IMG/VR virus record: IMGVR_UViG_2534682078_000036
Coordinates: 1 to 23,616 of that record
Length of the DNA stretch: 23,616 nt
Origin: a virus
Taxonomy: Duplodnaviria > Heunggongvirae > Uroviricota > Caudoviricetes
Direction: 5' to 3' (one strand)
Shown one piece after another: positions 18,001 to 21,000 of this stretch. Position numbers: made by a program. The number at the start of each line of letters is the position of its first letter. Position 1 is the first letter of the stretch.

Positions 18001-21000
18001 GGGAAAAGACAGACCGACAAGCTGGTCATGGGTATGGGTAGCACCACTCGCGCTAACAGCGAAGACTGCCTTTTTGCAGTGAAAGGAAATCTGCCTGAAC
18101 GCATTAACGCCGGAATAATCCAGTCATTCACTGCACCGCGCCTTGATCACTCCCGCAAGCCGGATATGGCGCGAGAAAAACTTGTGCAACTTCTTGGCGA
18201 TGTTCCCCGGATAGAACTGTTCGCCCGTCACACCTCGCATGGATTTGATGTCTGGGGTAACCAATGCGGAACACCATCCATTGAGATGGTTCCGGGTATT
18301 GTTAAATTTCTGGAGAAAACCAATGAGCGAAAAAACGACGTTGACAAAAGGCATCACCAGTTGAATTAAGGCAGTGCCTGGAAATCGCAAATCAACTTGC
18401 CAGAAGTGGAATACGCTTTGTTCCGATCCCGATCACAGCAGATACAGAACTTCATCTGTTTGGTGAAATTCTTTCCCGAAAGCTGGATGAACTGGAAAAG
18501 CTGGTAGAAGAAGCTGACACCTCACCAATCGCATAACACCCTGAACCGCCCCGGAAATCCTGGAGACTAAACTCCCTGAGAAAGAGGTAAACAGGATGAC
18601 TAAAAATACTCGTTTTTCCCCCGAAGTCCGTCAGCGGGCGATTCGTATGGTTCTGGAAAGTCAGGATGAATATGACTCACAGTGGGCGGCAATTTGTTCC
18701 ATTGCCCCAAAGATTGGCTGTACGCCGGAGACTCTGCGTGTCTGGGTTCGCCAGCATGAGCGGGATACCGGGGGCGGTGATGGTGGGCTCACCAGCGCTG
18801 AACGTCAGCGTCTGAAAGAGCTGGAACGTGAAAATCGTGAACTGCGCCGCAGTAACGATATCCTTCGCCAGGCTTCCGCTTATTTTGCGAAGGCGGAGTT
18901 CGACCGCCTCTGGAAAAAATGATGCCACTGCTGGATAAGCTGCGTGAGCAGTACGGGGTCGGACCGGTATGCAGCGAACTGCATATTGCCCCGTCAACGT
19001 ATTACCATTGTCAGCAACAGCGACATCATCCGGATAAACGCAGTGCCCGTGCGCAGCACGACGACTGGCTGAAGAGAGAGATACAGCGCGTATACGATGA
19101 AAATCATCAGGTGTACGGTGTGCGTAAAGTCTGGCGTCAGTTGTTACGGGAAGGAATCAGGGTGGCCAGATGTACAGTGGCACGTCTCATGGCGGTTATG
19201 GGACTTGCCGGTGTTCTCCGGGGTAAAAAGGTCCGTACGACCATCAGCCGGAAAGCCGTTGCCGCAGGCGACCGCGTAAACCGTCAGTTCGTGGCAGAAC
19301 GACCTGACCAGCTGTGGGTGGCTGATTTTACTTACGTCAGCACATGGCAGGGCTTCGTCTATGTGGCGTTTATCATTGATGTGTTTGCCGGATACATCGT
19401 GGGGTGGCGGGTCTCATCGTCTATGGAAACGACATTCGTGCTGGATGCGCTGGAGCAGGCGTTGTGGGCCCGTCGTCCGTCTGGCACCATCCATCACAGC
19501 GATAAAGGCTCTCAGTATGTGTCACTGGCCTATACGGAGCGACTAAAAGAAGCCGGATTACTGGCATCAACAGGGAGTACAGGCGACTCGTATGACAACG
19601 CGATGGCTGAGAGCATCAATGGTCTTTACAAAGCGGAGGTAATACACCGTAAGAGCTGGAAAAACCGTGCAGAAGTGGAACTGGCCACACTAACGTGGGT
19701 GGACTGGTATAACAATCGACGATTGCTGGGAAGGCTGGGCCATACTCCTCCGGCAGAAGCAGAAAAAGCTTATTATGCTTCCATCGGAAACGATGATCTG
19801 GCAGCCTGAGTTCACAGATAAAACACTCTCCAGGAAACCCGGGGCGGTTCACACCCACCGACATTAAAATATCAGGAGAAAAAAATGAACGCCGTACTCA
19901 CAGAATTGAACAAATTAGGAAAAGCAACAGCCGACAGCATTTCTAAAGGTCTCAATATTGATTTGAATGACGTCATTGATACGCTGTGGAAGTTGAAAAA
20001 CCAGGGGATCGTAAAGGTAAAAAACGGCATCTGGCAGGCAGTAGAGGGAGTTGGAAGCAAAACAGATATTGATTCAGTTCAACCAGTTCAGCCAGTGCAG
20101 AACAACATTATAGGTGACCTGCTACGTAAATCACGGAAAGAAGCGCGCCGCGCCGGGCGGAAACAGAAACGATGGGAGGGTGCATGTAAGGCGTTGCAAG
20201 AACTGAATAAATACCGTGACTTGATCAACGAATTGTCAGAGTGAACGTAGCGGGAATCCACGTCCTTTAGGGCGTGGATGATATCAGGCTGTTGAAATAC
20301 ATGTAGAAAAGGAGCGCATACTATGGAAGTCAACTTAATGACCGAAAAAGAGGTTTCTGATTTGTTACAAAAAAGGCGCACAGCTTTGTATAATTTGCGA
20401 AAAAAACACGGATTCCCGGAACCAGTACTTACTCATCCGGCGCGATATAGTCGTCAGGCCGTTGAACAATGGCTTAAAGCCGGAGGAATTAACCGAGCTG
20501 TTTAGCGTGCCAGAAAATTTTATCAGCATACAACTCATACGCATCTTTCTGTTCCGACAACCAGTCGTGTTTATTATACACGGCCATAACTCCCCCAAGT
20601 TCATGCCCCAGCATTTTTTCAGTGACGTGGGGCATAATTCCTTCCCCAGATAAATTCGTTACCAGAGAACGCCTAAAATCATGCGTTCTCCATTCAGGAA
20701 TATCAATTTTCTCCCTTAACTTTTTCATGTACAAATTAGCCGACGAACGATCAATAGGTTTATCTATTTCCTGCCCGGGGAATAGCACATCAAAACCCGC
20801 ATTAAGCAATCGCTCAATATAAGGCTCAACCTGAGTAAATATCGGACGCCGGATAATATTACCCATCTTTGAATGCTCTTTAGGGGTTGTCCAGACCAGA
20901 TCTTCCATGTTGAACTCACTGGCTGTAGCGAGACGTAGCTCAGAAAGCCTGGCCCCCCATAGCAATAGCAATTGATGTAACAGCTTGTTGGAAGTAACCA

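Follow-up and report, generated by a model that had tools for sequence, protein, structure and literature searches.

A complete IS629 element between the distal early genes and the integration module of a phi24B-like prophage

The element and its surroundings

The window, by which we mean the whole 23,616-nucleotide stretch of DNA that was analyzed, holds a single copy of IS629/IS1203 (IS3 family), a complete element of 1310 bp on the + strand at positions 18542–19851. Its left inverted repeat (IRL, 25 nt; 18542–18566, + strand) begins TGAACCGCCCCGG, and its right inverted repeat (IRR, 25 nt; 19827–19851, + strand) terminates CCGGGGCGGTTCA. The two repeats pair with complementarity at 22 of 25 positions (88%), and the element ends TG...CA. 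Both reading frames are present on the + strand. The first, orfA (18596–18922), encodes 108 aa with an HTH_Tnp_1 domain (Pfam E = 2.4e-12), and it overlaps orfB through the sequence ATGA. The second, orfB (18919–19809), encodes 296 aa with HTH_21 and rve domains, the latter being the DDE integrase core (E = 9.3e-28). An ALIL pseudoknot (Rfam RF01497; 18877–18993, + strand), the programmed −1 frameshift signal that leads to the OrfAB transposase, is matched over the full model length and scores 121.5 bits, the gathering score being 50. An earlier note on this DNA had described an intact, 1310-bp IS629-like element with both inverted repeats and both ORFs, a description that is correct down to its coordinates.

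The identity of the element is far beyond chance. Over its full 1310 bp, the element shows 100% identity with IS629/IS1203 copies on many STEC chromosomes and plasmids, in records annotated as IS1203 family, and zero mismatches separate the window element from the copies at two of the loci compared here, L002 and L003. Copies identical to it are annotated by PGAP as encoding a programmed-frameshift transposase, and, judged by its sequence, the window copy is active-looking. No IS is commoner in EHEC than IS629, and a match to it occurs in 4253 of the 5426 complete E. coli genomes searched. The window element is identical in every respect to the IS629/IS1203 of enterohaemorrhagic E. coli; its flanks alone are unusual.

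The host of the element is a lambdoid prophage resembling phi24B and Stx2-86, with argW as its integration site. IS629 occupies a spacer of 36 nt that separates the DUF1382 gene from DUF1627, close to where the leftward early (pL) operon ends, and shares the orientation of that operon (+ strand). On its left, the leftward early genes end with antB, MT-A70, and DUF1382; on its right come DUF1627, the AlpA-like gene, and the integrase gene. This arrangement agrees with the earlier placement of the element between the last early genes and a hypothetical/AlpA/integrase block. The DUF1382 ORF (18378–18536, + strand; phrog_292) is the frameshifted form, given as 52 aa in the annotation of relatives, and its TAA stop lies 5 bp ahead of IS629. 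The first gene 3′ of the element (19885–20244, + strand) encodes the DUF1627 protein (119 aa, phrog_1888). Its ATG, 33 bp past the end of IS629, and its ribosome-binding site are intact.

A pL-like promoter (8986–9014, + strand) stands ahead of an HK022-type putL antiterminator RNA (9015–9152, + strand), and the two likely mark the beginning of the operon extending through IS629, 9.4 kb downstream. The putL element was identified by BLAST, with 96.4% identity to putL as annotated in HK022/HK75; Rfam returned no match at 9015–9152. An N antiterminator was considered for this operon and set aside, as neither Pfam nor PHROGs found an N homologue between cI and 9755. The early region of phi24B contains N, whereas the window has putL in its place.

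The integration module closely resembles that of phi24B (vB_EcoP_24B). The AlpA-like excisionase Xis (60 aa; 20323–20505, + strand) is identical at 56 of 60 residues to the experimentally validated phi24B Xis (PMC3064807), and the P4-type tyrosine integrase (389 aa, TTG start; 20489–21658, − strand) is identical to phi24B Int at 386 of 389 residues (99%). As in phi24B, where the integrase is inverted relative to lambda, int is convergent with the pL operon and overlaps xis by 17 bp; xis is the only one of the pair to lie on the operon strand downstream of IS629. The int upstream region (21659–21853, − strand) is 100% identical to the phi24B region in which pInt was mapped and includes a promoter-like site at 21817–21788. 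The attachment site is argW, a tRNA-Arg (CCT) gene (21854–21928, + strand), with phage homology extending to approximately 21880, and attachment at the argW side is also common to both phages. The two differ in that phi24B lacks IS629 and carries two additional small ORFs in the DUF1627–xis interval, both absent from the window.

Flanks of IS629 and the length of the target duplication

The sequence CACCC adjoins IS629 on both sides (18537–18541 and 19852–19856). The earlier note had read both flanks this way, correctly, and had raised a target duplication as a possibility, noting that IS3-family elements usually duplicate 3–4 bp; the repeat is probably not a simple 5-bp duplication, given the empty site in relatives and a survey of other insertions. 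IS629 typically leaves a clean 3–4 bp duplication, as reported by Rump et al. (PMC3271280), whereas the repeat in the window is either perfect over 5 bp or a 3-bp duplication in which one base differs. Our survey of 45 distinct IS629 insertions found a 3-bp duplication in 30, a 4-bp duplication in 2, and a duplication of at least 5 bp in none. Among the 13 insertions without a perfect repeat, 5 agree at two of three positions (binomial p = 0.027).

IS-free relatives, with which the earlier note had suggested a comparison, do exist, and the two flanks are contiguous in them. Those outside the lineage of the window all read CACCCCCACC at the insertion site. The empty site, ATAACA[C/G]CCCCACCGAC, is of constant length at 18 IS-free loci outside the lineage (L001–L004, L006–L008, L129, L131, L134–L136, L139–L142, L144, and L146–L147), and L145, which carries IS629 elsewhere in the module, has the same empty-site sequence. 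The window flanks match those of L001 without a difference across 2500 bp leftward and some 960 bp rightward, save for a 9-bp repeat indel, which ties the junction anomaly to IS629 rather than to background divergence. Position 19853 is A, where the relatives predict C.

These comparisons suggest, with reasonable probability, that IS629 duplicated the CCC of an ancestral site, ATAACACCCCCACCGAC, over 3 bp, that the right copy now reads CAC, and that the CACCC repeat arose by chance. The last 3 nt of the left flank, CCC, would then be the true target duplication, to which the first 3 nt of the right flank, CAC, answer. The uniform CACCCCCACC of IS-free relatives outside the lineage favors such a 3-bp duplication with an altered base (CCC/CAC) over one of 5 bp. 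The repeat also continues imperfectly beyond CACCC, as TAACACCC on the left (18534–18541) and TCACACCC on the right (19849–19856), the latter taking in the final 3 nt of IS629. Conceivably, though improbably, the odd CAC copy is a 3-bp spacer from an IS-circle junction that was kept at integration. If so, it would record, as few sites do, the copy-out-paste-in mode of transposition.

A true 5-bp duplication would require that the lineage already had a 2-bp shorter site, ATAACACCCACCGAC, and that IS629 doubled its CACCC. The choice turns on the ancestral site: CCC/CAC agrees at two of three positions against a site with five Cs, whereas CACCC is a perfect 5-bp duplication against a site with three. 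The perfect repeat that adjoins both ends of IS629 speaks for the longer duplication, as does L130, an IS-free member of the same lineage that has exactly one CACCC in otherwise 100% identical flanks, as the three-C allele predicts. L130 would in this case either preserve the empty site as it was before insertion or have reverted precisely. However, L133 is an IS-free lineage member that appears to be an excision product, so L130 need not be ancestral. Variants in the length of the C run were seen in none of the relatives examined outside the lineage, so that, on this reading, a rare 2-bp deletion would need to have come before insertion at the very same spot. The single-CACCC site had no perfect match in curated collections of 304 complete genomes and 187 phage records, where the best match was 99.3% identical and spanned 302 bp for a 300-bp query. 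Both our survey and the published range (PMC3271280) also weigh against 5 bp, and we regard this longer duplication as possible but doubtful.

Expression of int and xis

The earlier note had further suggested that the insertion may uncouple int and xis from pL. This suggestion is not supported for int, which lies on the − strand behind an upstream region identical to that of phi24B. In phi24B, int is inverted and constitutive, with its own promoter, and its expression in the lysogen is independent of CI (Fogg et al. 2011, PMC3064807); int of the window would therefore never have been pL-driven. Since int lies outside the pL operon in phi24B-type modules, polarity reasoning based on lambda is inapplicable to it, and, with a probable promoter of its own on the opposite strand, int should experience little or no effect from IS629. 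For xis, uncoupling is unlikely. Transcription from pL that has been antiterminated by put should read through IS629, so any effect on xis would be modest at most. A terminator scan of IS629 yielded no convincing + strand terminator; it returned one weak + strand candidate, at 19309–19324, and the regional count was not above that of shuffled sequences. phiPA2 offers a precedent, in that this related, not identical, prophage carries IS629 in the same orientation approximately 0.9 kb upstream of the same xis.

The stronger proposal, that a polar IS629 severs int and xis from pL, impairs excision, and locks the prophage in, would fit the location of the element, which shares the strand of xis and separates it from the promoter-proximal portion of the operon. 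It would also fit the requirement for Xis in phi24B excision, together with the control of xis by pL that Fogg et al. inferred (PMC3064807). It is nevertheless improbable. The int gene probably has its own promoter on the opposite strand, the operon opens with a put antiterminator, and the terminator signal of IS629 does not rise above background. Moreover, phiPA2, with its co-oriented IS629 upstream of the same xis, was transferred to a new host, the lab strain WG5, as the WG5::PA2 lysogen attests, and the lower induction of PA2 is complemented by the methyltransferase gene alone (PMC10810198).

An effect in the opposite direction to the earlier polarity idea is more improbable still. Transcription exiting IS629, either from its own promoter or from an outward −35 element in IRR (TTCACA, created by the A at 19853), would feed xis independently of CI and increase spontaneous excision or loss of the prophage. 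IS629 is co-oriented with xis and lies 470 bp upstream of it with no terminator between, and the hexamer at the IRR–flank junction is TTCACA, where the ancestral site would give TTCACC. With Int constitutive in phi24B, Xis is left as the sole gate (PMC3064807), and xis fed from IS629 would make spontaneous excision more frequent. However, the promoter scan was blank at the IRR–flank junction and did not report the candidate outward hybrid promoter, TTCACA-16-TATCAG. The best −10 candidate, TATCAG at a 16-nt spacer, is without the conserved final T, so the hybrid promoter is rated weak. The transposase promoters of IS3-family elements are themselves weak, and the prophage is still found in many assemblies of the lineage.

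Distribution, and probable origin and loss, of the insertion

Several draft assemblies of a single lineage, all public, share the insertion, which was found solely by searching for exact matches to the DUF1627 protein. The IS-bearing assemblies include GCA_000225065.2, GCA_002461485.1, GCA_016592055.1, and GCA_016590355.1. Across 7.7 kb, IS629 included, L132 and the window are 100% identical, and L132 is the one assembly in which the left junction was seen. L137 has the same right junction, and the contigs of L138 and L148 end exactly at that junction, with 12 and 2 further similar places beyond those listed. Sampling by the Int protein did not isolate the lineage; the Int allele occurs in 1185 blocks, and its contexts are mostly phi24B-like in the 10 places listed. 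A left-junction query against 5426 complete E. coli genomes returned no record with at least 80% coverage, and the exact 26-mer of the left junction is absent from IMG/VR. Right-junction matches all proved to be IS copies within the MT-A70 gene, bridged by a gap, and thus a different site. Other independent IS629 insertions lie nearby at L002, L003, and L145.

We favor an account, to which we assign a probability of about 0.8, in which a recent, simple transposition would have set one IS629 copy into the DUF1382/DUF1627 spacer, with mostly neutral consequences for int and xis and later loss of the element in some sister genomes. That IS629 instead marks a rearrangement, in which two copies recombined and joined unrelated DNA, is extremely improbable and is refuted by the contiguous empty sites: although 13 of the 45 surveyed copies lack a perfect flanking repeat, both flanks of the window element are 100% identical to one relative, L001, and are adjacent in every IS-free relative, none being found with the flanks apart. 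The element was also considered as a recombination boundary, but divergence to the right is restricted to int, from 20812, and the DNA adjoining IS629 matches the same relative on both sides.

Loss of the element is suggested by L130 and L133, which are identical to the window over 14570–23616 yet have no IS629. Their joints read GCATAACACCCACC (L130) and GCATCACACCCACC (L133), the latter retaining a C that matches the IS629 end TTCA. Excision of IS629 through microhomology, driven by transposase and IEE, is documented (PMC9943667; bioRxiv 10.1101/2023.06.07.543989), with IEE/transposase-promoted excision attributed in the summaries given there to Kusumoto et al. 2011. The IS-free joints fit microhomology-mediated excision. 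Some sister isolates may have lost IS629 when the imperfect repeats T[A/C]ACACCC were joined by a transposase/IEE-type process, which would give the two IS-free joints of GCA_022090575.1 and GCA_012344715.1. As in IEE-type excision, the joints in the sister genomes lie at short stretches of homology, with one reaching into the IS629 end, although here the likeness comes from sequence comparison alone.

Insertions of this type are already known to account for most of the small differences among Stx-type prophages. Among Stx2a phages whose phage DNA has been sequenced, variation stems chiefly from IS629 (PMC4587872), and the argW-integrated Stx2a phages phiPA2, phiPA8, and PA28 (Yin et al. 2015, PMC4587872; PMC10810198) share with the window the same IS, the same distal pL segment, and the same prophage family. 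In phiPA2, IS629 disrupts the MT-A70 methyltransferase gene, whereas in the window MT-A70 is intact and the element is intergenic, 5 bp past the DUF1382 stop. The window IS629 is an ordinary copy of a known element and, as one more strain marker, matters little. Where a flanking direct repeat exceeds the length usual for its family, empty sites should be consulted before the repeat is taken for a target duplication. The site also brings together IS-bearing and IS-free sister genomes, the latter with two differing joints, and could serve as a compact natural example of IS629 loss through microhomology.

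IS629 in the early half of an argW prophage

The window covers the early half of an argW-integrated lambdoid prophage, whose genes were mapped by comparison with Stx2-converting phage 86 and phi24B. The minus strand carries ninH, ninG, roi, other nin genes, P, O, cII, and cro (192-8049). On the plus strand lie cI (8116-8847), bet (11471-12256), exo (12253-12930), antB (16647-17300), the MT-A70 methyltransferase gene (17737-18369), and a DUF1382 gene ending at 18536. An IS629 copy follows at 18542-19851 (+), and beyond it are a DUF1627 gene (19885-20244, +), an HTH_17/AlpA-like gene of 60 aa (20323-20505, +), the integrase gene (20489-21658, -), the argW tRNA-Arg (CCT) (21854-21928), and host cscB (22369-23616). 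On this map, the IS separates the end of the leftward early operon from the integration block, in agreement with the earlier note. It lies 5 bp past a stop codon and 33 bp ahead of the next ATG and interrupts no open reading frame. Three sets of Rfam matches reach the gathering score. One, in the nin region (2324-2522, -), consists of a C4 antisense RNA, its a1/b1 targets, and isrK; the others are the lambda cIII thermoregulator (10804-10862, +) and 'sRNA-Xcc1' (16546-16635, +), which lies immediately upstream of antB, the antirepressor gene. The DUF1382 gene (18323-18536, +) is frameshifted relative to O157 argW phages by one extra A near 18346 (A4 versus A3); because O111 strains and Stx2 phage 86 share this allele, the frameshift is unlinked to the IS. 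In the DUF1627 gene, 9-bp (Pro-Val-Gln) repeat units (20075-20100, +) vary among relatives, and the encoded proteins range from 119 to about 144 aa.

The element is intact and single-copy in the window, and the coordinates, repeats, and reading frames first assigned to it are all correct. Inverted repeats TGAACCGCCCCGGAAATCCTGGAGA and TCTCCAGGAAACCCGGGGCGGTTCA, 25 nt each and 88% complementary, bound it; orfA (18596-18922, +; 108 aa, Pfam HTH_Tnp_1) overlaps orfB (18919-19809, +; 296 aa, Pfam HTH_21 and rve), and an ALIL frameshift pseudoknot (18877-18993; Rfam, 121.5 bits, gathering score 50) spans the overlap. All 1310 bp are 100% identical to many STEC chromosome and plasmid copies annotated 'IS3-like element IS1203 family transposase', and 4253 of 5426 complete E. 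coli genomes contain a match. IS629 in prophages, including this segment of argW phages, is already known from published work.

Flanking repeats and probable excision

The IS is flanked by CACCC at 18537-18541 and 19852-19856, exactly as the earlier note read them when it raised the possibility of a target duplication. In 18 IS-free loci outside the window's lineage (L001-L004, L006-L008, L129, L131, L134-L136, L139-L142, L144, L146-L147), the corresponding site has a constant length and reads ATAACA[C/G]CCCCACCGAC; L145 has the same sequence there, its IS629 lying elsewhere in the module. No perfect match to a site with one CACCC was found among 304 genomes and 187 phage records. The window junctions are ATAACACCC before the IS and CACCCACCGAC after it. 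Measured against the five-C site of these relatives, they represent a 3-bp duplication of CCC, the right copy being CAC with A at 19853. Outside the junctions, the window and IS-free L001 are identical over 2.5 kb to the left of the IS and about 0.96 kb to its right, which ties the anomaly to the IS rather than to background divergence. IS629 is reported to duplicate 3-4 bp (Rump et al., PMC3271280). Among 45 distinct insertions in L002, L003, and L009-L127, surveyed by their flanks, duplications are 3 bp in 30, 4 bp in 2, and at least 5 bp in none; worked examples are TTA in L002 and CTCG in L003. The other 13 lack a perfect repeat, and 5 of these match at two of three positions (p = 0.027); one-base-imperfect duplications may recur for IS629.

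The insertion and its sister genomes were located by exact look-up of the DUF1627 protein. L132 (GCA_000225065.2) matches the window at 100% identity across 7.7 kb, IS included, L137 has the same right junction, and contigs of L138 and L148 end at that junction (12 and 2 further similar places counted). Two sister genomes, L130 (GCA_022090575.1) and L133 (GCA_012344715.1), lack the IS but are otherwise identical to the window over 14570-23616, with joints GCATAACACCCACC and GCATCACACCCACC, respectively. Judging by their sequences, both joints are what would arise if two imperfect 8-bp repeats, TAACACCC (18534-18541) and TCACACCC (19849-19856), were joined; the final 3 nt of the IS fall within the second repeat. 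L133 retains the C of the IS end and is hard to explain except as an excision product of an IS-bearing ancestor. Microhomology-based excision of IS629, promoted by transposase/IEE, is documented. Excision could have produced L130 too, or L130 may carry the ancestral allele. In the latter case it might represent a lineage-specific three-C site, 2 bp shorter, of which the perfect CACCC repeats would be a true 5-bp duplication. That alternative is the less likely one; it requires a rare 2-bp deletion precisely at the later target as well as a duplication length absent from the 45 other insertions. For these reasons, the 3-bp duplication is preferred, with a probability of roughly 0.6.

Expression of int and xis

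The earlier note proposed that the IS may uncouple int and xis from pL. For int this is not supported. The integration module is, by sequence, of the phi24B type: 386 of 389 integrase residues and 56 of 60 Xis residues are identical to those of phi24B, in both phages int and xis are convergent with a 17-bp overlap, and the two share 240 bp upstream of int at 100% identity. The phi24B int is inverted relative to lambda, has its own promoter with a start mapped by 5' RACE, and is expressed in lysogens, unaffected by CI over-expression (Fogg et al., PMC3064807). In such an architecture, with int on the minus strand, int would never have been coupled to pL, and polarity from the IS could reach only xis and the DUF1627 gene. 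The phi24B Int alone is unable to excise, and its excisionase is an AlpA-like ORF whose placement under pL was inferred by Fogg et al. (PMC3064807). The integrase gene is a mosaic: 20812-21647 (-) carries the phi24B allele with 1 difference and differs from O111/O157/Stx2-86 argW phages at 46-48 positions, whereas 19854-20811 is identical to those phages. Phage homology reaches ~21880, so the first ~27 nt of tRNA-Arg (CCT) come from phage DNA, as does a promoter-like site, TTGATT-18-TATTAT (21785-21814), ~40 bp upstream of the tRNA and divergent from the int promoter region.

A block of xis or of prophage excision is unlikely. The operon probably starts at a pL-like promoter (8986-9014, +; TTTACA-17-TATAGT), and the adjoining 9015-9152 (+) matches the annotated HK022/HK75 putL antiterminator RNA at 96.4% identity. 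Together with the finding of no N homologue between cI and 9755, this match suggests that the phi24B/Stx2-86-like prophage uses N-independent, put-type antitermination. Put-modified RNA polymerase transcribes through terminators, and no plus-strand terminator signal within the IS rises above the shuffled background. PA2, an argW Stx2a phage with the same IS629 in the same orientation within its MT-A70 gene, ~0.9 kb upstream of the same xis, is present as a lysogen at argW of laboratory strain WG5. IS629-bearing Stx2a phages were assembled from phage DNA by Yin et al. (PMC4587872), and the lower induction of PA2 is complemented by the methyltransferase gene alone (PMC10810198). The reverse effect, CI-independent transcription from the IS into xis, is conceivable but found no promoter support in a promoter scan. 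Near the operon start, two overlapping ORFs (89 and 84 aa; 9172-9619, +) correspond to the N-terminal and C-terminal halves of a single 147-aa family, phrog_13686; the pair looks like a frameshifted moron and is flanked by strong terminators (8865-8884 and 9621-9638).

IS629 in the distal pL segment

An insertion at exactly this position occurs in public draft assemblies but was not found in the collections of complete genomes, phages, and IMG/VR records. Related argW prophages carry IS629 elsewhere in the distal pL segment: in L002 (2066-3375) and L003 (2010-3319), whose copies equal that of the window base for base, and in L149 (transposase CDS 1445-2658) and L145 (transposase CDS 5027-6240). 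Three of these four interrupt the MT-A70 (rRNA methyltransferase) gene, with both orientations represented, and one lies between DUF1627 and xis-proximal ORFs. Given independent insertions in L002, L003, L145, and phiPA2, the distal pL segment of argW prophages seems to tolerate, or attract, IS629.
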